A DNA stretch of 64,000 nt, taken from Nitrospirota bacterium. GTDB lineage: Bacteria > Nitrospirota > Thermodesulfovibrionia > Thermodesulfovibrionales > JdFR-88. Location: assembly GCA_021789935.1 (NCBI GenBank), contig JAJYIR010000013.1:1651-65650 (forward strand), given 5' to 3'. A program made the translations under genes and the position numbers. Below, one piece after another: positions 32,630-43,244 of this stretch; the first letter of the stretch is position 1; the number at the start of each line of letters is the position of its first letter. The notes under the pieces were generated by a model, which worked only from the letters and a program-made list of their open reading frames with translations, did no database searches and was not told where the DNA came from.

Positions 32630-35077
32630 TTACGCGGGATCCACCTTGACGGCGGCGATGGGCGCCTCCCCGTTTTTGGAAGGCAGCGTAAGCAGGTTCA
32701 CCTTTGCGTGGGCAAAATGCGCCGGAGCAAAGACCATTCCCTGCGGCACCTCATCCGTCACCCTGGCCTTCAGGTAGATGGCCTCGCCATTCCGGCCGCT
32801 GACCTTTACAAAACTATCGTTATATATGCGGCGGGCATCCGCGTCCGAGGGGTTTATCTGAAGGTATGCGTCAGGCGCAGCGGAATCCAGGTTGTTGGAT
32901 ATCGTGGTAAGGCTCCCGGAGTGCTGCATAAGGTTGCCCGTGGCAAAAAGAAGCGGATGCCCGCCATCGGCAGACTCCCTTGTTTCCTGCTCCACCGGTA
33001 TAAAGACGGGATGCGCCGTCTCCTGCCTTTGCTCAATGTCCGCAAGAGCGCTTGCCGAGAGCCCGGCAAAACTTTTGGCGTCCAGGTCCGTATGCATGAG
33101 TCTTCCCAGGTTTCTTAATATCTTCCAATCCGGAATGCCTTGCCCGATTTCGGACAGACACTTGACGATCTTTTGCGGTTTGCCGGTCATGCCCACGAAG
33201 GTGCCTTCCTTTTCCCCCCAGCCGGAGGCGGGAAGCACGACGTGGGCGAGCTTTGCAGTGGCGGTCATCATTATGTCCTGGACGACGAGGAGTTCCAGCC
33301 CGCCCAGTGTGTTCATCACCCTGGTGGTATCCGGGAAGGTGACCACCGGGTTTTCACCCATTATAACCAGGGCCTTCATTTGGCCGCCGTAAAGCATCTC
33401 CACGGCGTCAAGGCCCGTCTCGCCTCCTTCAAGCACCATTTGGGTCCCCATGGTGTTTGCGAACTCTGGCGGCAGGCCCAGCGCCTCCGGGCCCCTGCCA
33501 AGCAGTATCGCCAGGTCCATAAGGGCCAGCGCGGTGCCTTCGCCCTTTGTGTTCTCCGAGCTTCCGAAACATGCCATGAACATCGGGTTTTTTGCGGCCG
33601 CAAGCGCACTGGCCGCATGCCTGATGTCCAGCTCGGATACCCCGGCCATGACGGCGGCCGCGGAGGGCTTGTATCTTTCGAGGGTTTTTTTGAGTTCATC
33701 GAATCCTTTTACGGCTTCGGCCTTCTTATCGAAAAGGTCCGCTTCGATAAGCGCGCTCATGATGCCGTTTACAAGGGCCACGCCGGTTGCGGGCCTTATC
33801 CGCAGCCACTGGGAACTCCATCTTGAAAGTTTCGACTCCCTCGGGTCGGCCACTATTAGAGTGGCCTTGAGGTCCCTGTGCGCCGCAAGCGCCTTCAGCC
33901 CGTAAACGGGGTGTGTGGATGTGAGGTCGGACTCCAGCACGAAAATGACGTCGGCCTTAAGGGGAGCGTCAAGGTCGAGGGCCAGCCTCGAAATGCCGAA
34001 TGTTTTTTTAAGCGCCTCCACCTGTTTGGCATAGCCAAGCCTGGTCCTCGAATCTACGTTTTTGGAGCCCAGGGACAGGACCATGAACTTTTTGAGCATG
34101 TAGTTGTCTTCGACTGAGCAACGCTCAGAGCCCAATGCGCCTATGGCCCGGGGGCCATGCGCCTCTTTTATTTCCGCAAGCCTCCTGGCCGTGAATTCAA
34201 GGGCCTCCTGCCAGCTGGCGGGCTCAAGTTTGCCTTCTTTTCGCAGGAGGGGGGTTGAAAGCCTGTGTTCCGATTCTATGAAATCGAACCCGAACCTTCC
34301 CCTTGGGCAGAGGTCTCCCTTGCTTATGCCTACGCCGTCCTTGCCCCTTGCGCGCAGGATTTGGCCGTCCCTTAAGCTCAGGACGGAAGTGCATCCAACG
34401 GAACAGTAGGGGCAGATGTTTTCCTGCTCGTCCATGAACCACACCCTGGAGCGGAACTTATAAGACTTTGTCCCCAGGGCCCCCACGGGGCAGGCATCCA
34501 CGCACTGGCCGCAGAACTCGCAGTCCAGCGTTTCCTCAAACGCGGGGCTGACCTTTGTCTTGAACCCCCGTCCGATCAGGTTAAGGGCGCCCACACCCTG
34601 GTGCTCTTTGCATATTCTTACGCATTTGCCGCAGAGGATGCACCTGTTGGCGTTTCTTTCTATCAATGGCGCGGCCGTGGACTCCGGCTCGTGCTTCCTC
34701 TCATCGGCAAACCTGCTGGCCACCGGCCCGTATTTAAATGCCAGGTCCTGGAGATCGCATTCCCCGGCCTTGTCGCAGACGGGGCAGTCAAGCGGATGGT
34801 GCACCAGCAGCAGCTCCAGGACGGTCCTCCTGGCCTTCTCAAGCTTCGGCGTCTCCGTATGTATGATCATTCCGGCCTTGACGGGCGTGGAACAGGAGGC
34901 CAGGAACTTATGCATCCCTTCCACCTCGACCAGGCACAGACGGCATCCGCCGTAAGGCAGCAGCCTCCTGTCCCAGCAGAGGTGAGGTATATATATGCCG
35001 TTTGCAAGCGCTGCCTGGAGGATGGTGGTTTTGGGCTGCGCCTGTATGTTTTTGCCGTTTATGACGAACTCTATCAT
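32630..35077 (-). CDS. NuoG-like iron-sulfur subunit with a degenerate molybdopterin-oxidoreductase domain
   Basis: The start is trimmed to MIEFVINGK (ATGA overlap with the upstream stop). It has a 2Fe-2S site, a His-ligated 4Fe-4S site (HHPLDCPVCDKAGEC), two ferredoxin-type 4Fe-4S sites and CPYCSVGC. Where formate dehydrogenases carry Cys/Sec-His, this protein reads NVDSRTRLGY. Confidence 0.85.
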   Translation of the reverse strand: MIEFVINGKNIQAQPKTTILQAALANGIYIPHLCWDRRLLPYGGCRLCLVEVEGMHKFLASCSTPVKAGMIIHTETPKLEKARRTVLELLLVHHPLDCPVCDKAGECDLQDLAFKYGPVASRFADERKHEPESTAAPLIERNANRCILCGKCVRICKEHQGVGALNLIGRGFKTKVSPAFEETLDCEFCGQCVDACPVGALGTKSYKFRSRVWFMDEQENICPYCSVGCTSVLSLRDGQILRARGKDGVGISKGDLCPRGRFGFDFIESEHRLSTPLLRKEGKLEPASWQEALEFTARRLAEIKEAHGPRAIGALGSERCSVEDNYMLKKFMVLSLGSKNVDSRTRLGYAKQVEALKKTFGISRLALDLDAPLKADVIFVLESDLTSTHPVYGLKALAAHRDLKATLIVADPRESKLSRWSSQWLRIRPATGVALVNGIMSALIEADLFDKKAEAVKGFDELKKTLERYKPSAAAVMAGVSELDIRHAASALAAAKNPMFMACFGSSENTKGEGTALALMDLAILLGRGPEALGLPPEFANTMGTQMVLEGGETGLDAVEMLYGGQMKALVIMGENPVVTFPDTTRVMNTLGGLELLVVQDIMMTATAKLAHVVLPASGWGEKEGTFVGMTGKPQKIVKCLSEIGQGIPDWKILRNLGRLMHTDLDAKSFAGLSASALADIEQRQETAHPVFIPVEQETRESADGGHPLLFATGNLMQHSGSLTTISNNLDSAAPDAYLQINPSDADARRIYNDSFVKVSGRNGEAIYLKARVTDEVPQGMVFAPAHFAHAKVNLLTLPSKNGEAPIAAVKVDPA

Positions 35078-36939
35078 CTCGTCTGCACTCCTTTGGCCTG
35101 TTCGATTAATTCTTTTGCCAGGCTCCCCGGGCCTGTCTTGAGCGCCCCGAATTTGCACGCCTCATAGCAGGACCGGCACTTTATGCACATGGTCTGGTCT
35201 ATGACGTGGGGTGTTTTCTTTTCGCCCGACACCGCTTTTTGCGGGCACACCCTGGCGCAGGCCCCGCAGCCTTTGCACGTTTCGGGGTCTACATAGAAGG
35301 TCACTAAAGGTCTGCAGACCCCGGCCTTGCACCATCCCTCGTTTATATGGGATTCGAACTCCTCCCTGAAATATTTTATGGTAGTCAGCACCGGGTTGGG
35401 CGCGCTCTGGCCCAGGCCGCACAGGGACGTGTTTGTGATGTCCTGGGACAGGTCCTGCAGAAGCTCTATGTCCCCTTCCTTGCCCCTGCCCTCGGTGATG
35501 TCCACGAGCTTGTCGTGCATGACTTTTGTACCTATCCTGCAGGGAGGGCATTTGCCGCAGGACTCATCCGTGGTGAACTCCAGGAAGAATTTCGCCACGC
35601 TGACCATGCAGTTGAAATCGTCTATTACGACCATCCCCCCGGAGCCGACGATGGCGCCGGTCTTAGCGATGTCCTCGAACGTGACGGGCGTGTCCAGAAG
35701 CGCCTCCGGTATGCAGCCGCCCGAGGGGCCGCCAAGCTGTACGGCCTTGAACTTCCTGCCCTTCTTCATGCCTCCGCCGATGTCGAAGATTATCTTCCTC
35801 AGAGGCATGCCCATGGGCACCTCAACAAGGCCTATGTTGTTTATGGCCCCGGTCAGGGCGAACACCTTTGTGCCCGTGGATTTTTCCGTGCCGAGGCTCT
35901 TGAACCATCTTGCGCCGTTTAAGATTATGAGCGGGATGTTTGCGTATGTCTCCACGTTATTAAGGACGGTGGGTTTTCTCCACAGCCCCTGGGTGGTGGT
36001 ATGGGGGGGTTTTGGAATGGGCATACCCCGCTTTCCCTCTATGGAGCGCATAAGCGCCGTCGCCTCGCCGCATACGAACGCGCCCGCGCCCAGGTATATC
36101 TCTATGTCCAGGTTGAAGCCGGTGCCAAGGATGTTTTCACCCAGCAGGCCGTATGCTTTTGCGTCATCTATGGCCTTCTGCAGCCTCTGTACGGCAAGCG
36201 GGTACTCGGCCCTGACGTATATGTATCCCTTGCTTGCGCCGATGGCCTTTGCCCCTATTAGCATGCCCTCCAGCACCACATGAGGGTCGCCTTCCATGAT
36301 GCTCCTGTCCATGAAGGCGCCGGGGTCTCCCTCGTCCCCGTTGCAGAGGATGTATTTGAGCGGGCCGGGCACCATGTAGCAGAGCTCCCATTTAAGGCCG
36401 GTGGGGAAACCGGCGCCGCCCCTGCCCCTCAGGTCCGAGGCCTTGATCTCAGCTATTATTTCCTCCGGGGTCATGCTGGAAAGGGCCTTGGCGGCGGCCT
36501 GGTAGCCGTCCCTGGCGATGTATTCCTCTATATTGTCGGGGTCTATGAGCCCCTTGTTCCTTAGTGCGCGGAGCACCTGGAGGTTGAAAAAGGGTATCTC
36601 GCTCATGACGGGCAGGACATTTTTTTTCACCGGCTCCTTGTACATGAGCCTTTCCACCGGCCTGCCCTTTAGCAGGTGTTCCTCCACTATCTGGGGCACG
36701 TCCTCCGGGGTCAGCTTCTCATAGAATGTGCCGTCCGGATATACGGTCATGATGGGGCCCTGGGCGCAGAAACCGTTGCACCCCGTTATGACTATGTTTA
36801 TCTCTTCCTCAAGCCCCTTTTTGCGGAGTTCGGCATCGAGGGCCTGCTTCACTTTAAGCCCGCCGCCTGCCATGCAGCCGGTCCCTCCGCATATCATCAG
36901 GTTAGCCCTGAAATTGTCCATCTTTATGTGTTCCTCCAA
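35074..36939 (-). CDS. NuoF/HydB-like NAD(H)-binding flavoprotein with extra N-terminal 2Fe-2S and C-terminal 2x[4Fe-4S] domains
   Basis: GRGGAGFPTGLKW, DESCGKCPPCRIGT, an N-terminal thioredoxin-like CGGTGC...CNGFC, and C-terminal CKGCGACARVCP and CIKCRSCYEACK. Confidence 0.9.
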   Translation of the reverse strand: MEEHIKMDNFRANLMICGGTGCMAGGGLKVKQALDAELRKKGLEEEINIVITGCNGFCAQGPIMTVYPDGTFYEKLTPEDVPQIVEEHLLKGRPVERLMYKEPVKKNVLPVMSEIPFFNLQVLRALRNKGLIDPDNIEEYIARDGYQAAAKALSSMTPEEIIAEIKASDLRGRGGAGFPTGLKWELCYMVPGPLKYILCNGDEGDPGAFMDRSIMEGDPHVVLEGMLIGAKAIGASKGYIYVRAEYPLAVQRLQKAIDDAKAYGLLGENILGTGFNLDIEIYLGAGAFVCGEATALMRSIEGKRGMPIPKPPHTTTQGLWRKPTVLNNVETYANIPLIILNGARWFKSLGTEKSTGTKVFALTGAINNIGLVEVPMGMPLRKIIFDIGGGMKKGRKFKAVQLGGPSGGCIPEALLDTPVTFEDIAKTGAIVGSGGMVVIDDFNCMVSVAKFFLEFTTDESCGKCPPCRIGTKVMHDKLVDITEGRGKEGDIELLQDLSQDITNTSLCGLGQSAPNPVLTTIKYFREEFESHINEGWCKAGVCRPLVTFYVDPETCKGCGACARVCPQKAVSGEKKTPHVIDQTMCIKCRSCYEACKFGALKTGPGSLAKELIEQAKGVQTR

Positions 36940-36992: not shown

Positions 36993-37376
36993 TCAATAAG
37001 AGTTCTCGCTGCCCATTACCAGGGCATATTCCTGAACGGCATCGCCCCCCATGATGTGCTCCGTAAATATCCTCTTTATCTTTACGGCGTCCAACTGGCA
37101 GTATTTGACCGGGGCCTGGCCCGTTATCTCCACCGTGGCCATGGGCTCCTTGCTGCAAAACCCGGCGCAACCCGATGCCGTGACGATAACGTCTTTAACG
37201 TCGTTTTCCGCCAGGGCCTCGACGAGGGCGCTCATAACAGTTCTGGCCCCGGCGGATATTCCGCAGGTGCCCATGTGTATAATTACCCTGGCCCTGTGGT
37301 TTCCGTGCCTCAGGGTGAAGGTGGCCTCATACCTCTCTTTTATCTTTTTCAGGTCATCTATGGTCAGTCTTTGCAC
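36993..37376 (-). CDS. thioredoxin-like [2Fe-2S] ferredoxin (HydD-like small subunit)
   Basis: 127 aa with the pattern HMGTCGISAG...ASGCAGFCSKEP. Confidence 0.8.
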   Translation of the reverse strand: MQRLTIDDLKKIKERYEATFTLRHGNHRARVIIHMGTCGISAGARTVMSALVEALAENDVKDVIVTASGCAGFCSKEPMATVEITGQAPVKYCQLDAVKIKRIFTEHIMGGDAVQEYALVMGSENSY

Positions 37377-37403: not shown

Positions 37404-38261
37404 CTATTCATACTGGGCAAGGATGTCCAGTGTCTTTACCGGGTTTACGGAACCGTGTGTGTCCTTGTCCACCACTACAACCGGGGCAAGGCCGCACGCG
37501 CCAAGGCACCTTACGCTTTCAAGCGAGAATTTTTTATCGGCCGTGACTTCCCCGATATCTATATTCAATTGCTCCTTCAGCCTCGCCAATATCTCCTCCG
37601 CCCTTTTCACGTAGCACGCGGTGCCCAGGCAGACCCTTACGTTGTGCCTGCCCTTGGGCTTCATGGTGAAAAAAGAGTAGAAGGAGACCACCCCGTGCAC
37701 CTCGCTTACCGGCAGGTTCAGCCCGCGGGCTATGTGTTTTTGGACAACCGGCGGCAGGTAGCCGATCAGATTCTGGGCCTCCTGGAGCACCGGGATAAGG
37801 CTTCCCGGCTTGTCTTTGTGTTTTTCAATTATCCCGGTCAGCTTTTCAGCCGTCTCCCCGGTGAAATCCTGGGATTCCGCCTTCCCGGATTTTTTCCTGA
37901 CCTCCATTGCCTTCGCTGCGGTCTCGATGAGCAGTGAGGGCGAAAACGGTTTGGGCAGGTAGTCTATGATCCCAAGCGCAAGGGCCTCCTTTATGCTTTC
38001 CTGGGAAGGATGGCCGGTAATAAGCACCAGGCATATTTCAGGGTTTTTGGCCCTCAGCTTCCTCATGAACTCCATCCCGTCCATGCCGGGCATCTTTATA
38101 TCGGTAATGACGAGGTCGTACGGCTTTGCGCCTTCGAGCATCTCGATGGCCTTAAGGGCGGAGAGGGCGGTGCTCACATCGTATCCCGCCGGCGAAAGTA
38201 TCCGCTCACAGCTTTTAAGTATTACTTCCTCATCGTCGACAACCAGAACGCTGCCTTTCAT
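37404..38261 (-). CDS. response-regulator receiver domain fused to a NuoE/HydC-like [2Fe-2S] subunit
   Basis: The N-terminal REC is complete (VVDDEE, ITDIKMPGMDG, LITGHPS, LPKPF). The C-terminal NuoE fold is present (IPVLQEAQ..., CLGTACY, CLGACGLAP). Confidence 0.88.
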   Translation of the reverse strand: MKGSVLVVDDEEVILKSCERILSPAGYDVSTALSALKAIEMLEGAKPYDLVITDIKMPGMDGMEFMRKLRAKNPEICLVLITGHPSQESIKEALALGIIDYLPKPFSPSLLIETAAKAMEVRKKSGKAESQDFTGETAEKLTGIIEKHKDKPGSLIPVLQEAQNLIGYLPPVVQKHIARGLNLPVSEVHGVVSFYSFFTMKPKGRHNVRVCLGTACYVKRAEEILARLKEQLNIDIGEVTADKKFSLESVRCLGACGLAPVVVVDKDTHGSVNPVKTLDILAQYE

Positions 38262-38337: not shown

Positions 38338-38967
38338 CTAAACTCTATTATGACTCTTTATGGCCGTCTTTGTCTGGTCTCTGCCTTCCATGACGGCCGT
38401 GTTAATGGCATCCCTTACCATAAGAAGTATCTCCGGCAGGTTTACCGGGGTTTCCCCAAGCGCCTCCTTCAGCGCGTCCGAATCGAACCCGTAATGGAAA
38501 CTGCTTCCGCTGGCGGGACCGCCGTTGATGTCATAAAACAGGACGTACCGGATCTCGGGGTGGCCGCACATCATCGAAAGCATGGTGGCCCCGATGTTCC
38601 CGAGCGGCTTTCTGTCTATATGGCCGAACCTGAAAGAGGCAAAAAGGGTGGTCCCCTTTCCCGGTTCCGAATCCAGACGGAACTCCCCGCCGCACTCCGT
38701 GGCCGCCTGCTTCAAAAGGGGTATCCCCAGCCCAAAGCGCTTTTTTTGCTTTTTGCTTTTGCTTTTATTTTTGTCCCCGTCGTAAGTAAAAAAAGGGTCC
38801 TCGGCCTTAAGCAGGACGCCGCCGTCCATGCCGTGGCCGTTGTCCTCCACGCTCAGTGAATAATTATCACTGCCGGGGTCTTCCGCTATCCGTATAACTA
38901 TCTTTGTAGCCCCGGCGTTTATCGAGTTTTCAGCAATATCGAGTATATGGAGCGATAGATCTTCCAT
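38338..38967 (-). CDS. stand-alone histidine-kinase-like ATPase (HATPase_c) protein
   Basis: N box HILDIAENSINAG, G1 DNGHGM, G2 GLGIPL, then GKGT. No DHp/His domain. It contains a KNKSKSKKQKK insertion. Confidence 0.8.
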   Translation of the reverse strand: MEDLSLHILDIAENSINAGATKIVIRIAEDPGSDNYSLSVEDNGHGMDGGVLLKAEDPFFTYDGDKNKSKSKKQKKRFGLGIPLLKQAATECGGEFRLDSEPGKGTTLFASFRFGHIDRKPLGNIGATMLSMMCGHPEIRYVLFYDINGGPASGSSFHYGFDSDALKEALGETPVNLPEILLMVRDAINTAVMEGRDQTKTAIKSHNRV

Positions 38968-39722
38968 TAATCAAAAACCGCCTTTCTTCCGTCTGCCGCC
39001 TTAAGTGCCAGGGCAATTTCTTTCAGGCTTGCCTCTTTCAGCAGAAACCCCGTCCTTTTCCCGCCTATGTCCTCCAGCCTGTGCGCATCGGAGCAGCGAA
39101 GCCCCGGCTGCCCCTGGAGGGAAAATGGTTTTTGTCTTTGCCCGCAGACCTCAAGCGCGTCGAACTCCAGGTCCGCCGGAATGAAGCCGAGCTGGGAAGT
39201 GACGCTGAAAGAGCCCCGGTCGGCATGGCTTGCTATCGCCACTCCCCCAAGGCTGTGGATGGCCGCCACCAGGCCGGAAAGCCTTATGCCCGTTGCGCCG
39301 GAAAGGGGCCTTCTGCTGAAGCCCAGCACTTCGTCATCCTCGTTCACTATGACCTGCCCGAACGGAGGGGGCTGTCTGTCCCCCTTTTCCCTTCCCTGCG
39401 GCCCCCGGTAAAAACTGTCCAGTTCCCTGTAGACGCTCTCCTGCATCCTGAGGGCGGCCTCCAGAGTTTCAAAAAGGGCGAGCACGTGGACTTCCTCGGA
39501 GGAGGTTATCTCCATTGCGGGCACCAGGGAGACACCGGCTTTTGAGGCCGCGCGGGCAGCGGCTTCCAGGTTCTCGCAGGAGTTGTGGTCCGCTATGGCC
39601 ACTATGTCCAGCCCCGCTTCCGAGGCCTTGCGCATGATCCGCCATGGTGTCATGTCCAGCTCTGCGCAGGGGGAAAGACAGCTGTGTATGTGCAGGTCCG
39701 CCGAAAAAAACCTCACTGCCAT
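38967..39722 (-). CDS. PHP-domain phosphoesterase
   Basis: DLHIHSCLSPC N-terminal metal motif and AIADHNS. Its stop overlaps the next start (TAATG). Confidence 0.8.
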   Translation of the reverse strand: MAVRFFSADLHIHSCLSPCAELDMTPWRIMRKASEAGLDIVAIADHNSCENLEAAARAASKAGVSLVPAMEITSSEEVHVLALFETLEAALRMQESVYRELDSFYRGPQGREKGDRQPPPFGQVIVNEDDEVLGFSRRPLSGATGIRLSGLVAAIHSLGGVAIASHADRGSFSVTSQLGFIPADLEFDALEVCGQRQKPFSLQGQPGLRCSDAHRLEDIGGKRTGFLLKEASLKEIALALKAADGRKAVFD

Positions 39723-39752: not shown

Positions 39753-40097
39753 TTACCTGACCTCATTTTTCAAAAGAAGGTTATAGACCATCCCAACCAT
39801 CTCGTATGTCTGCAAAGAGGTGCTCATGACCGGTATGAACTCGGCCTCCGCTTTCTCCAGAGTCTCCGCATCTATCTGCTTGCCCCCGGTCACTATTATT
39901 CCGGCCAGGCCCTTTATTGCCGCCACCGCCGCCACATTGGGATGGGTCTGCCGCGTTATCCATATGTTGCCTTCCTTGCCGTTTGCAAGGACGTCGGAGA
40001 GCATGTCGCTCGCATAACAGCCGTTTATGACGGCCTCCGTATTGCCATTGTTTCTCATGTCCATATCCAGCCTGTCTATAAGTTCCCGTACGGTCAT
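39753..40097 (-). CDS. DRTGG domain protein
   Basis: 114 aa. The segment GNIWITRQTHPNVAAVAAIKGLAGIIVTGG is typical of DRTGG. Confidence 0.75.
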   Translation of the reverse strand: MTVRELIDRLDMDMRNNGNTEAVINGCYASDMLSDVLANGKEGNIWITRQTHPNVAAVAAIKGLAGIIVTGGKQIDAETLEKAEAEFIPVMSTSLQTYEMVGMVYNLLLKNEVR

Positions 40098-40102
40098 TTC
40101 AA

Positions 40103-40594
40103 CTATTCCTGCCTTGCATTTAATTGTGGTGTTTTTAGGTTTATGGTGATCTCAAGTGTTGTGCCTTCGCCTGGCACGGAATCTATTGAGAGGGCGTCGG
40201 CGTTCTTTTTTATGTTGGGCAGGCCCATGCCGCTGCCCCACCCGAATTCCCGGGCCCAGACGGGCGCGGTGGTGTAGCCCTCCTTCATTGCAAGCCCTAC
40301 GTCCTTTATTCCGGGCCCCATGTCGGTGACAGTGATCGTAAGAGTTTCACCCTCTATTGAGTACCTCAGGCTCCCCGCCACAGCATGGATTATGACGTTT
40401 ATCTCCGCCTCGAAGGAGCAGATGGCCGCCCGCCTGATAAGCTGGGCCGGCACCCCAAGCGCGGCAAGCTCGCAGCGCAGGCTCTTTGAGCCTGCCCCCG
40501 CGTCCGAGAAGTCCCCTCCGTTTAGGGGGAAGTAGATGTGCTGCCCGCCGTTTACGGCACCGTCCGTATCTTCTCTTTTTTCCCCTGAACTCAT
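40103..40594 (-). CDS. RsbW-like anti-sigma regulatory factor / serine kinase (HATPase_c_2)
   Basis: The start is trimmed to MSSGEK (ATGA overlap with the upstream stop). Motifs: EAEINVIIHA, DMGPGI, GMGLPNI, GEGTTL. Confidence 0.8.
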   Translation of the reverse strand: MSSGEKREDTDGAVNGGQHIYFPLNGGDFSDAGAGSKSLRCELAALGVPAQLIRRAAICSFEAEINVIIHAVAGSLRYSIEGETLTITVTDMGPGIKDVGLAMKEGYTTAPVWAREFGWGSGMGLPNIKKNADALSIDSVPGEGTTLEITINLKTPQLNARQE

Positions 40595-41358
40595 TCCGTC
40601 AAAACGCCGGAGCTTACGCGGAGCAGCCATACGAGCCAGTTTTCCGAAAGGCATTCCGAAACAAAACCCGGCAGCGTCTCGTTTGCCTTTTCGTTTCTGT
40701 TTATCACGATACCGCTCATCGGCGCCTTCAGCTCCATTATCCTGCCTTCCCCGAGCAGGACCCTGGCAAAGGTCTCCCCGGAAGTGATGGCGGGCTGGTC
40801 GATGAGGTCTATGTAAAGCATATGCCCTCCCAGGTACCATTGCCTGACATCGAAACCTATCTCCCATCCTCCATTTACAGGCCTTGCCCATGCCCCATCC
40901 TTGTAATAGATGGCCTGTTCGTCCATCTCCGACGCTACCGTCACATATTGCTTGAACTGGTCAATAAAGGCCTTGCGGAGTATCCATCCCCGCTTATCAA
41001 AGACCTTTGCGGCGACGTTTTTCATGAACTCGGGCGTGAAGGGTTTTTCGAGGAACTCGAACGCGCCAAGCCTTATTGCCTCCTTGGCGTCTTCGAGCGT
41101 GGGGTATCCGGTTATCATAACCACATCGGTTTTGGGCTGGATGACGCGGGCCTCTCCCAACACCTCTATCCCGTGTATGTCGGGCAGCCTGATGTCGGAT
41201 ATTAGGAGATCAACCTCTTCGGAGTTCAATCTCTTTAAGGCCTCGGCCCCGCTGGTGACCGCATTTACCGTGTAGCCTTCCGCCCCCAGTATCCTTTTGC
41301 AGCTAAGACCCACTACCGGATCATCATCTACAACCAGTATCTTTTTCCCTGCTGCCAT
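40591..41358 (-). CDS. response-regulator receiver domain fused to a glycine-cleavage-H-like (lipoyl-fold) domain lacking the lipoyl Lys
   Basis: The start is trimmed to MAAGKKILVVDDD, which follows GGAGG. The REC is complete (SDIRLPDIHG, ITGYP, EKPF). The C-terminus aligns by eye with GcvH (YYKDGAWAR...IGFD...KAPMSGIVINRNE), but GEGR replaces ESVK. Confidence 0.7.
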   Translation of the reverse strand: MAAGKKILVVDDDPVVGLSCKRILGAEGYTVNAVTSGAEALKRLNSEEVDLLISDIRLPDIHGIEVLGEARVIQPKTDVVMITGYPTLEDAKEAIRLGAFEFLEKPFTPEFMKNVAAKVFDKRGWILRKAFIDQFKQYVTVASEMDEQAIYYKDGAWARPVNGGWEIGFDVRQWYLGGHMLYIDLIDQPAITSGETFARVLLGEGRIMELKAPMSGIVINRNEKANETLPGFVSECLSENWLVWLLRVSSGVLTE

Positions 41359-41400: not shown

Positions 41401-41415
41401 GCAATATGTGTGCCA
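41401..41415 (-). promoter_or_regulatory. near-consensus sigma54 promoter TGGCAC-ACATA-TTGC
   Basis: The reverse complement of 41401-41415 reads TGGCACACATATTGC. It lies about 45 nt upstream of the ATG at 41358. Confidence 0.7.
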
Positions 41416-41564: not shown

Positions 41565-41999
41565 ATGGAATTTGTATACTGGAGGATGATCATCGAATCA
41601 CCCGGGGCACTTGCCCGCCTCATGAAGGAGTCTTTTGAAAAACTGGGCCCCTACATTGAAAAGCACACGCAAAGGGTTTGCCCCGTCTGCCAAAAAGTCT
41701 GCTGCGCCAACAAGCACGGGACGCCCGAACGTGAAGACTTTCTGTTTTACCGTGCGCTCGGTGTGGAACCTGAGCCCGCCAGAGGGGCCCCCGATGAGAT
41801 ATGCAGTCTGCTTGGCGGCACGGGATGCGAGCTTCCAAGATGGCAGAGGCCCTTCAGGTGCACATGGTATTTCTGCGGGCCGCTTCTGGATTCCATGCGC
41901 CGGGGAAACGGCCGGGAGTACAGGCGGCTCGTGGCTGAATTGGCCCTGCTTGTGGAACTGAGAGGGAGGCTCATAAGCATTGGTCCGCTTCAGGAATAA
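41565..41999 (+). CDS. Cys-cluster protein (YkgJ/CxxCxxCC-like)
   Basis: CPVCQKVCC motif plus further Cys residues (CSLLGGTGC, FRCTWYFC). Its stop abuts the next gene's ATG. Confidence 0.55.
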   Translation: MEFVYWRMIIESPGALARLMKESFEKLGPYIEKHTQRVCPVCQKVCCANKHGTPEREDFLFYRALGVEPEPARGAPDEICSLLGGTGCELPRWQRPFRCTWYFCGPLLDSMRRGNGREYRRLVAELALLVELRGRLISIGPLQE

Positions 42000-43244
42000 A
42001 TGACAGACATCGACAGGATACTTGGCGTTCTCGTTTTCCTGATCGTGCTTGTCAGGAAAAAGGTGCCGGCGGGGGCAGTGCTGCTTCTGGGCTCTCTTTT
42101 GCTTGCGGTCCTTTATCTCATGCCTGCGGGTGTCCTGTTTTCCGCCCTGGAAACGGCCCTGGTAAAAACCCCCGAGGCCGTAAAGGTGGCCCTGGCTCTT
42201 ACCGCCATACGGGGGTTTGAGCTTGTGCTCAGGGAAAAAAAGATCCTGCAGGGGATGATGAATGCCTCAAGGAATTTTTCGAGCGGGAAAAAGGCCCTCA
42301 TTGTTTCCATGCCTCTGCTCATAGGCACCCTTCCGTCAATGGGGGGCGCGTATTTTTCCGCGCCGATGGTGGAGGAGGCCTCAAAAGGGATGGGGCTTGC
42401 CGCGGAGCGGAAAGGGTTTTTGAACTACTGGTTCAGGCACCCCTGGGAATACGTGCTTCCACTTTATCCGGGTATAGTGCTTGCAAGCGCGGTCTCGGGG
42501 ACCAGGCTGGACACGCTGATGCTTTTCAATCTGCCATATGCCCTGGGGGTTGCGGCAACGGGTTATATATTCGGTTTAAGGGGGATCGGGGGCGGGCCCG
42601 CCGCGCGCGAATCCGCGCGGGAAGGCGTCAGGGAGCAAAAAAGACAAAAAAAACAAAAAAGACCTTTTGAAGGTTTTTTGAGTTTTCTGCCAATTTTTTC
42701 CATATTGGCGATGGTCATAATCTTCGGGATGGAGTTCCAGTGGGCCATCCTTGCCGCCCTTGCCGGCCTTTTTGTCTTTTATAAATACCGGCCGTCAGAG
42801 GTATGGAGGGTAATCAGGCTCTCCTTCTCCATGGATGTTTTACTTCTTGTCGCCGGTGTCATGATATTCAAGCAGGTGCTTGTTGACTCCGGGGCGGTTG
42901 CCAACCTGGGCCGGTCTCTTGCCGTGGAAGGGATACCGCTTATGGCGCTGCTTTCCGCCATTCCTTTTGTGGCAGGCCTGCTGACAGGCCATACAATGGC
43001 ATTTGTGGGGGCGGCTTTTCCGCTCCTGATGTCCCTGCCCGGGGGAAGCGGGCCGCACGCCATATCCTTTGCCTTTGCCTGCGGTTTTCTGGGAGTGCTG
43101 CTGAGCCCGGTCCATATCTGCCTGATGCTTTCAAGGGAATACTTCAAGGCGGACCTTTGGGGCATATACAAAAGGACCATACCCGCGGCCGTGGTGATAT
43201 TTATGGTGGCAGTGGGGGAGTACCTCATATTCCGCCCGTTCTGA
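42000..43244 (+). CDS. polytopic membrane protein (possibly a DUF401-type permease)
   Basis: About 10-12 hydrophobic helices in two halves, joined by a charged loop that contains an EQKRQKKQKRP insertion. Confidence 0.65.
   Translation: MTDIDRILGVLVFLIVLVRKKVPAGAVLLLGSLLLAVLYLMPAGVLFSALETALVKTPEAVKVALALTAIRGFELVLREKKILQGMMNASRNFSSGKKALIVSMPLLIGTLPSMGGAYFSAPMVEEASKGMGLAAERKGFLNYWFRHPWEYVLPLYPGIVLASAVSGTRLDTLMLFNLPYALGVAATGYIFGLRGIGGGPAARESAREGVREQKRQKKQKRPFEGFLSFLPIFSILAMVIIFGMEFQWAILAALAGLFVFYKYRPSEVWRVIRLSFSMDVLLLVAGVMIFKQVLVDSGAVANLGRSLAVEGIPLMALLSAIPFVAGLLTGHTMAFVGAAFPLLMSLPGGSGPHAISFAFACGFLGVLLSPVHICLMLSREYFKADLWGIYKRTIPAAVVIFMVAVGEYLIFRPF

Follow-up and report, generated by a model that had tools for sequence, protein, structure and literature searches.

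A response regulator with an H-protein (GcvH) fold that lacks the lipoyl lysine, linked to a receiver-bearing NuoE/F/G-like redox module in Nitrospirota

A 64,000-nucleotide stretch of a Nitrospirota genome (assembly GCA_021789935.1, contig JAJYIR010000013.1; hereafter the window) carries on its minus strand, at 40591..41358, a gene (P0001, hereafter REC-H) whose open reading frame, translation and domain matches define a response regulator of 255 amino acids. It consists of an N-terminal receiver (REC) and a C-terminal domain related to GcvH, the H protein of the glycine cleavage system. The C-terminal domain proved to be a specific GcvH homologue in which the lipoyl lysine is lost, and REC-H was found to be linked, almost without exception, to genes for a NuoE fused to a second receiver, a NuoF and a NuoG-like subunit. 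We lean, with moderate confidence, towards REC-H being a non-transcriptional response regulator that would dock on this NuoE/F/G-like (HydABC/Bfu-type) flavoenzyme. Response regulators have overwhelmingly been studied as transcription factors, as CheY-type proteins or with enzymatic outputs. REC-H has for its output the fold of a carrier protein whose cofactor has been lost, and the enzyme presumed to be its target bears a receiver of its own. A literature search yielded no paper describing fusions of REC with GcvH, nor any describing a NuoE with a fused receiver. The REC-GcvH architecture is already annotated in databases, where JGI pipelines name some members, and is undescribed in the papers found; what is new is a response-regulator output domain derived from a known fold.

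A GcvH homologue without the lipoyl lysine

The translation of REC-H holds YYKDGAWAR, IGFD, KAPMSGIVINRNE, NWLVWLL and LLGEGRIM, and thereby every motif that had been quoted, with the coordinates of the gene, in the original prediction, where the C-terminal part was aligned by eye with GcvH. Homology of this domain (residues ~150–249; 40612..40911, minus strand) was assessed with HHalign, profile matches to PDB sequences and Foldseek. Taken alone, REC-H matches the Pfam family GCV_H (PF01597) with an E-value of 0.01 and 16.2 bits, under the gathering cut-off of 22.2 bits, whereas about half of its close homologues and most of the distant REC-GcvH relatives exceed the cut-off. A profile of 30 C-terminal domains matched 15 PDB sequences, 14 of them GcvH (best E 2.5e-7). 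Comparison of the same profile by HHalign with an alignment of 20 canonical GcvH sequences, including the GcvH of the same genome, gave a probability of 99.25% and an E-value of 5.5e-20 over 108 columns. Aligned directly by BLASTP, REC-H and the GcvH of its own genome were 24% identical over 100 residues (E 8e-6). The GcvH signal of the single sequence is weak and that of the family is decisive: the proposed likeness to GCV_H stands at the level of the family profile, and is weak for REC-H scored by itself.

Structure prediction led to the same assignment. PDB profile and Foldseek searches with full-length REC-H gave receiver domains only, and the C-terminal domain alone was used instead. Its AlphaFold2 (AF2) model, with a predicted local distance difference test score (pLDDT) of 83 and a predicted template-modelling score (pTM) of 0.77, retrieved GcvH structures from the PDB as all of the top 22 Foldseek matches (probability 1.00, TM 0.51–0.62), and generic lipoyl and biotinyl domains appeared only at E > 0.07. 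The C-terminal domain is a specific homologue of GcvH with the GcvH fold, and the possibility of a generic beta-sandwich fell with this search. REC-H and GcvH (E. coli 3a7l/3ab9, T. thermophilus 1onl, M. tuberculosis 3ift) share the hybrid barrel-sandwich fold and a series of landmarks, namely the Trp of the H-E-W motif, a G-I-T strand, P-x-S-G, an Asn, and a G-W before the last strand. Unlike GcvH, REC-H is fused to a receiver, lacks the lipoyl lysine, and carries a conserved N-terminal linker helix instead of the C-terminal helix, which is missing from the AF2 secondary structure as the protein ends directly after the last strand. Unlike GcvH, too, it is not encoded with gcvT, gcvP or lpd, and its neighbours are signalling proteins and NuoE/F/G-like genes.

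The linker helix (residues 121–138, DKRGWILRKAFIDQFKQY; 40945..40998, minus strand) precedes the H domain, was recognized in the alignment and is helical in both AF2 models, with pLDDT below 50 for residues 121–132 in the full-length one. Its residues D121, G124, W125, I126, I132 and F135 are invariant. Mean column identity of the linker-plus-H alignment was 65%, versus 66% for the whole protein, and 29 of its columns were invariant, including W157, R159, P160, W165, E166, D170, R172, Y182, N222, N226, W241 and W244; R159, P160, W165, E166, D170, R172, Y182, N226 and W244 make up a family-specific set of invariant aromatic and charged residues. This pattern points to strong constraint on the H domain. 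A DNA-binding output was considered and rejected, because the H domain is acidic (isoelectric point 4.7) and a Pfam scan found no helix-turn-helix domain in REC-H.

At the position of the lipoyl-lysine turn, alignments and column counts placed the hairpin G203-E204-G205-R206 (40741..40752, minus strand). In canonical GcvH the hairpin reads E-S-V/T-K-A, and K62 was invariant in the 20 sequences aligned. Because the REC-H hairpin is one residue longer, the residue opposite the lipoyl lysine differs with the method, being 204 in HHalign, 205 in HMMER and BLASTP, and 206 in the original prediction, whose pairing of the lysine with R206 is thus one of three possible registers. Among 121 homologues, position 203 is Gly in 107 and position 205 is Gly in 118, the latter also being invariant in alignments of 52 and 30 sequences. 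Position 204 is mostly Asp (44), Gly (31) or Glu (28), and position 206 is mostly Gln (45), Lys (33) or Arg (16). The absence of the lipoyl lysine, noticed before in the single sequence, was thus confirmed for the hairpin itself, and alignment of the homologues revealed no conserved lysine in the turn. The only lysines in the H domain of REC-H are K153, K211 and K224.

The same genome (an assembly of 2.47 Mb, estimated to be 100% complete) has one canonical gcvH gene (...IESTKATSP...) on contig C21, directly upstream of the dihydrolipoamide dehydrogenase gene (lpd), and two genes of the BPL_LplA_LipB family, so the organism is able to lipoylate proteins. As judged from its sequence, the H domain of REC-H is not built to accept lipoate and would be incapable of being lipoylated. 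The label "glycine cleavage system H lipoate-binding protein" is misleading on such genes, because no lipoate-binding lysine is present.

A precedent for an H-protein-derived protein in a non-metabolic role, by analogy only, is the GcvH-derived eukaryotic protein Simiate/Abitram (FAM206A), which is reported to have ~20% identity to GcvH (Derlig et al. 2013, PMC3859600). Unlike REC-H, Simiate is eukaryotic and has neither a receiver domain nor a redox context. It is not known to be lipoylated.

The receiver of REC-H (residues 7–113; 41020..41340, minus strand) matches Pfam PF00072 (Response_reg) with an E-value of 2.7e-27. Alignment of 52 homologues showed no variation at D11, D12 and D13, which form the acidic pocket, at the phospho-acceptor D55 or at K105, and at least 90% of the sequences keep T83. 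The reading of this domain as intact was borne out, and it is predicted to be a phosphorylatable receiver, not a pseudo-receiver. Like CheY-type regulators and others with non-DNA-binding outputs, REC-H has an intact phospho-acceptor receiver and an output presumed to act by protein contact; unlike CheY-type regulators, it has a lysine-less H-fold as output, and its presumed target carries its own receiver on NuoE. The receivers of REC-H and REC-NuoE are 40% identical.

Gene linkage, relatives and a proposed signalling circuit

Conservation of the neighbourhood was surveyed by locating the window proteins with tblastn in 80 species-level loci, the best 80 of 182 species with a relative, all of them Nitrospirota metagenome-assembled genomes (MAGs) of Thermodesulfovibrionia type. 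In 76 of the 80 loci REC-H was followed by REC-NuoE, ferredoxin and NuoF in this order, with the NuoG-like gene after them if the contig extended far enough. Two loci (L041 and L074) were rearranged, with REC-H immediately after the NuoG-like gene, and in the remaining two the contigs were too short to judge the neighbours of REC-H. The receiver was fused to the H domain in 79 of the 80 loci, and a receiver was fused in frame to NuoE in all 76 orthologous loci, always alongside a REC-H gene. By contrast, the cassette of kinase, DRTGG, PHP and ATPase genes that separates REC-H from REC-NuoE in the window had this position in ~11 of the 80 loci, all in the window's clade; in other clades it lay after the NuoG-like gene, ~6 kb downstream, or was absent from the following 10 kb. 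REC-H stayed beside REC-NuoE where the cassette was displaced or absent. Since the first linkage is near-universal while the cassette moves or is absent, the conserved partner of REC-H is the REC-NuoE/NuoF/NuoG-like module and not the RsbW-like kinase encoded next to it in the window, which had also been put forward as a partner.

Of 301 Nitrospirota genomes sampled, 40 had REC-H, always as a single copy and only in the class of the window (30 of 121 genera). The Nitrospirota family comprises more than 860 clusters at 90% identity (>864 homologues) in 182 species genomes. An exhaustive profile search of 1.84 billion representatives recovered the REC-H subfamily as ~20 clusters (50% identity) at E <= 1e-10, beyond which other GcvH-like groups appeared. 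Many distant relatives were proteins of ~250 amino acids combining a receiver with a GCV_H domain above the Pfam threshold, and none of them had a lysine at the aligned tip; a flanking lysine was found only in P0142 and P0143. A search seeded with one distant relative yielded 2,310 proteins, from sources that include Deltaproteobacteria/Desulfobacterota, WOR-3 and Planctomycetota, and among them were REC-GcvH-HdrC fusions of 440 amino acids.

Two loci illustrate the context of these relatives. In a WOR-3 genome (GCA_023129615.1; locus L087, 8165-19329) a kinase, a sigma54 activator, a REC-GcvH and a REC-GcvH-HdrC are encoded first, then an HdrB-like CCG protein, a NuoE, a 127-amino-acid ferredoxin and a NuoF-GltD fusion of 1013 amino acids, and last a CBS-HATPase/DRTGG/PHP/HATPase cassette, the same signalling set as in the window. 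In a MAG labelled Deltaproteobacteria (locus L088), a kinase and a REC-GcvH are encoded beside multihaem cytochrome and cytochrome b genes. The contigs of P0143 and P0128 were shorter than 2 kb and their contexts uninformative; P0312 and P0260 were used instead. These comparisons show the lysine-less H-fold to be a recurrent response-regulator output encoded beside electron-transfer modules. Across phyla, too, a free REC-H is again found together with another receiver that is joined to a redox subunit (NuoE, or HdrC in WOR-3). A separate family of proteins of ~560 amino acids (P0161, P0171, P0183 and ~30 others) was also observed; these have an N-terminal part containing a signal or transmembrane segment and a GCV_H domain at ~380-490, with a hairpin reading Q-[DNE]-G-K-Q in which the conserved lysine is shifted one position from the canonical site.

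Among the closest known systems is LbpA. These GcvH-like proteins bind lipoate, belong to the Hdr-like (sHdr) system of sulfur oxidation, and are reported to retain the lipoyl lysine and to be lipoylated by their own ligases (Cao et al. 2018, PMC6067878). Like LbpA, REC-H is a GcvH-fold protein encoded beside a non-glycine redox complex, and its HdrC-fused relatives are encoded near an HdrB-like gene. Unlike LbpA, the REC-H family lacks the lipoyl lysine, carries a receiver and has a NuoEFG/Bfu-type module as its partner.

The start and promoter of REC-H place it at the head of its operon, as had been proposed. A sigma54-type -24/-12 element (TGGCACACATATTGC; 41401..41415, minus strand) lies 43-57 nt upstream of the ATG at 41358; it is the sole exact match within the window, where 0.07 are expected by chance, and such an element was found upstream of the REC-H orthologue in 40 of 78 loci. 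The ATG at 41358 is preceded by GGAGG. An alternative, longer frame initiated at GTG extends to 41427, and since it would begin upstream of the sigma54 element, the ATG is the credible start.

Neither a kinase for the receivers nor a sigma54 activator was found within the window. Upstream sequence was sufficient in 54 loci; in 21 of these (for example L003) it encoded an orthologous HAMP-HisKA kinase on the same strand, and in 14 a REC-sigma54 activator directly upstream of REC-H. The best orthologues in the window's own genome are on contig C59 (38340-41611, plus strand), where a histidine kinase (431 amino acids), a single receiver (136 amino acids) and a sigma54 activator, or bacterial enhancer-binding protein (543 amino acids), form a cluster orthologous to the one adjoining the operon in other species. 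Genome-wide, both receivers of the operon have their nearest paralogues in the C59 cluster (37–43% identity), whose receivers carry a common K-S-C-E-R-I-L motif. Such an arrangement is compatible with a single kinase serving four related receivers, one of them acting in transcription control and two located on or beside the enzyme; the assignment of the kinase to these receivers is one that we infer from paralogy and gene order.

A proposed role for REC-H and its alternatives

Combined, these observations suggest the following course of events. The HAMP-HisKA sensor kinase would phosphorylate a set of closely related receivers, of which one, on the sigma54 activator, would switch the operon on, and two others would be that of REC-H and that fused to the NuoE/HydC-type subunit. 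Phosphorylation at D55 would alter the association of REC-H with the HydABC/Bfu-type flavin/iron-sulfur complex of NuoE, NuoF and NuoG-like subunits, the most economical route being REC-REC pairing of REC-H with REC-NuoE. The acidic H-fold domain and the linker helix could then contact the enzyme and tune electron flow post-translationally. We infer this docking from gene linkage. As the original prediction had it, docking toward the downstream redox module is plausible, and it gains strength from the near-universal linkage to the REC-NuoE, NuoF and NuoG-like genes. The other role named there, that of a swinging-arm decoy, finds no support: nothing points to it, and no lipoyl-dependent partner (GcvT/P, E2/E3 or HdrB) was found among the operon genes.

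If docking does occur, REC-H would provide direct post-translational two-component control of a flavin/iron-sulfur redox enzyme of the HydABC/Bfu type. To our knowledge, regulation of such enzymes is largely unknown. Relatives extend to WOR-3, Desulfobacterota and further phyla, so that a single experiment would supply an annotation for thousands of genes. A wider and rather doubtful version of the proposal can be formulated, in which lysine-less H-protein domains would be a general, undescribed class of response-regulator outputs plugging two-component signalling into electron-transfer enzymes. In its Nitrospirota form, phosphorylation would drive hetero-pairing of the receivers of REC-H and REC-NuoE (BfuC), put the pseudo-H domain on the Bfu-type complex and, on a timescale of seconds, control a flow of electrons that is linked to NADH or ferredoxin and possibly bifurcating, parallel to sigma54 control of the operon by the same kinase.

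Several points weigh against the docking of REC-H on the flavoenzyme. The functional reading is built wholly on the neighbouring genes and on reasoning from domains. How the two domains are placed relative to each other is not confidently predicted by the full-length AF2 model (pTM 0.49; pLDDT of the linker <50), and the window's own genome encodes the proposed kinase and activator away from the operon, on contig C59. The NuoG-like subunit seems to be devoid of the catalytic Cys/Sec-His (cysteine or selenocysteine with histidine), which would leave the regulated reaction undefined. Finally, ~27% of the family members (33 of 121) have a lysine at position 206, where a modification is formally conceivable.

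The gene order of the window lends itself to another explanation, to which we assign a low probability: REC-H could interact with the adjacent RsbW/SpoIIAB-like serine kinase, as its partner or its substrate, with the H-fold of REC-H replacing a STAS antagonist and the PHP protein being the phosphatase. The start of the RsbW-like gene overlaps the REC-H stop codon, its product scores as an anti-sigma F factor, Pfam matches of the nine operon proteins include no STAS domain, and the WOR-3 REC-GcvH proteins are accompanied by the same cassette. The distribution of the cassette, which stands between REC-H and REC-NuoE in few loci and is elsewhere downstream or absent while REC-H keeps its place beside REC-NuoE, argues against such partner switching, as does the H domain, in which no conserved Ser/Thr target was identified. 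Slightly less probable still is that REC-H works mainly as a phosphate sink or competitor, influencing how phosphoryl groups are passed by the shared kinase to REC-NuoE and the sigma54 activator, with the H domain as a structural appendage or scaffold. The four closely related receivers do appear to form one circuit, and a single-domain receiver is present in the kinase operon; this receiver, however, could already be the sink. Conservation of the linker-plus-H part to the same degree as the whole protein, with its many invariant aromatic and charged residues, is also at odds with a mere appendage, which would drift.

Two further explanations turn on the lipoyl site itself. In canonical GcvH the aminomethyl-lipoyl arm is sheltered in a cavity, and at the corresponding place the H domain could bind a small molecule (for example free lipoate, dihydrolipoamide, a thiol or an acyl group), making REC-H a combined phospho- and ligand-sensor. 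Retention of the fold and the family-specific nature of several invariant Trp, Arg, Asp and Asn residues would suit a binding site. We nevertheless regard ligand binding as improbable, response-regulator output domains being usually effectors, not sensors. Least probable of all, and in our view very much so, is a true swinging-arm carrier for the redox module, with a lipoyl, octanoyl or biotinyl group still attached to a lysine in a shifted position. Such a carrier could draw on the lysine found at position 206, beside the invariant Gly, in a minority of homologues, on the two BPL_LplA_LipB-family proteins encoded in the genome, and on the HdrB-like disulfide-reductase-type protein that adjoins the HdrC-fused relatives. 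In REC-H itself, however, the hairpin holds no lysine and the three lysines of the H domain lie elsewhere; 45 homologues carry Gln and 16 carry Arg at position 206, the E-S-V/T-K-A context is lost and the turn is one residue longer. In lipoyl domains, moving the lysine by one residue abolishes lipoylation.

Genes of the operon and its surroundings

REC-H heads nine co-directional genes in the window, all on the minus strand. The next gene (40103..40594) encodes the RsbW/SpoIIAB-like HATPase_c_2 protein of 163 amino acids (PF13581, 1.8e-8; TIGR01925, anti-sigma F factor, 3.1e-13). Its start and the stop of REC-H overlap as ATGA at 40591-40594, which suggests translational coupling of the two genes in the window's clade. 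It is followed by genes for a DRTGG-domain protein of 114 amino acids (39753..40097; Pfam PF07085, 1.1e-8), a PHP-domain putative phosphoesterase of 251 amino acids (38967..39722; Pfam PF02811, 3.1e-7) and a second HATPase_c protein of 209 amino acids (38338..38967; Pfam PF02518, 1.3e-14). Identity of this kinase/DRTGG/PHP cassette with the hfs operon of Thermoanaerobacterium was considered and dropped, as the paper describes hfsA-D differently.

The redox module occupies the distal part of the operon. The REC-NuoE fusion of 285 amino acids (37404..38261; PF00072, 4.7e-28; PF01257, 1.5e-49) joins a receiver to a thioredoxin-like [2Fe-2S] subunit of NuoE/HydC type. Then come a 2Fe-2S ferredoxin-like protein of 127 amino acids, conserved across loci (36993..37376; NF041612, 2e-7), and a NuoF/HydB(BfuB)-type flavoprotein (35074..36939; Complex1_51K, 1.6e-45; NADH_4Fe-4S, two Fer4 and 2Fe-2S_thioredx matches) with the extensions of the HydB/BfuB type, namely an N-terminal 2Fe-2S domain and a C-terminal 2x[4Fe-4S] domain. 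The last gene (32630..35077) encodes a NuoG/FdsA-like subunit, identified by Pfam and NCBIfam matches, whose best match among PDB sequences is FdsA of NAD-dependent formate dehydrogenase (6tg9, E 1.2e-116). At the expected catalytic Cys/Sec-His site its molybdopterin domain reads NVDSRTRLGY; FdsA reads ...CARVCH there, and formate dehydrogenases carry the catalytic Cys/Sec-His at this site. A formate dehydrogenase reading of the operon was rejected on this comparison. Because the NuoG-like subunit seems to lack these residues, the operon would encode a Bfu-like NuoEFG module with no obvious catalytic partner.

The NuoE, NuoF and NuoG-like proteins share the architecture of BfuC, BfuB and BfuA, including the NuoF extensions, with the HydABC/BfuABC electron-bifurcating enzymes (Schut et al. 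2022, PMC9304861). Unlike in those enzymes, the A subunit of the window has a molybdopterin domain seemingly without the catalytic residues, and no catalytic partner is encoded in the operon. Receiver domains, GcvH and kinases gave no match in a term search of the same paper. A minor observation concerns a Nitrospira sp. Ru_enrich_NS MAG (locus L004, 18364-19122), where the NuoG-like gene is succeeded by genes for a GAF/PAS protein and a member of the FdhD-NarQ family; the presence of an FdhD gene would be odd if the molybdopterin domain is non-catalytic.

On the other side of REC-H, at 41565-43244 of the plus strand, a Cys-rich protein of 144 amino acids (CPVCQKVCC...) and a polytopic membrane protein of 414 amino acids are encoded divergently from the sigma54 operon, with which they share a common control region of ~200 bp.

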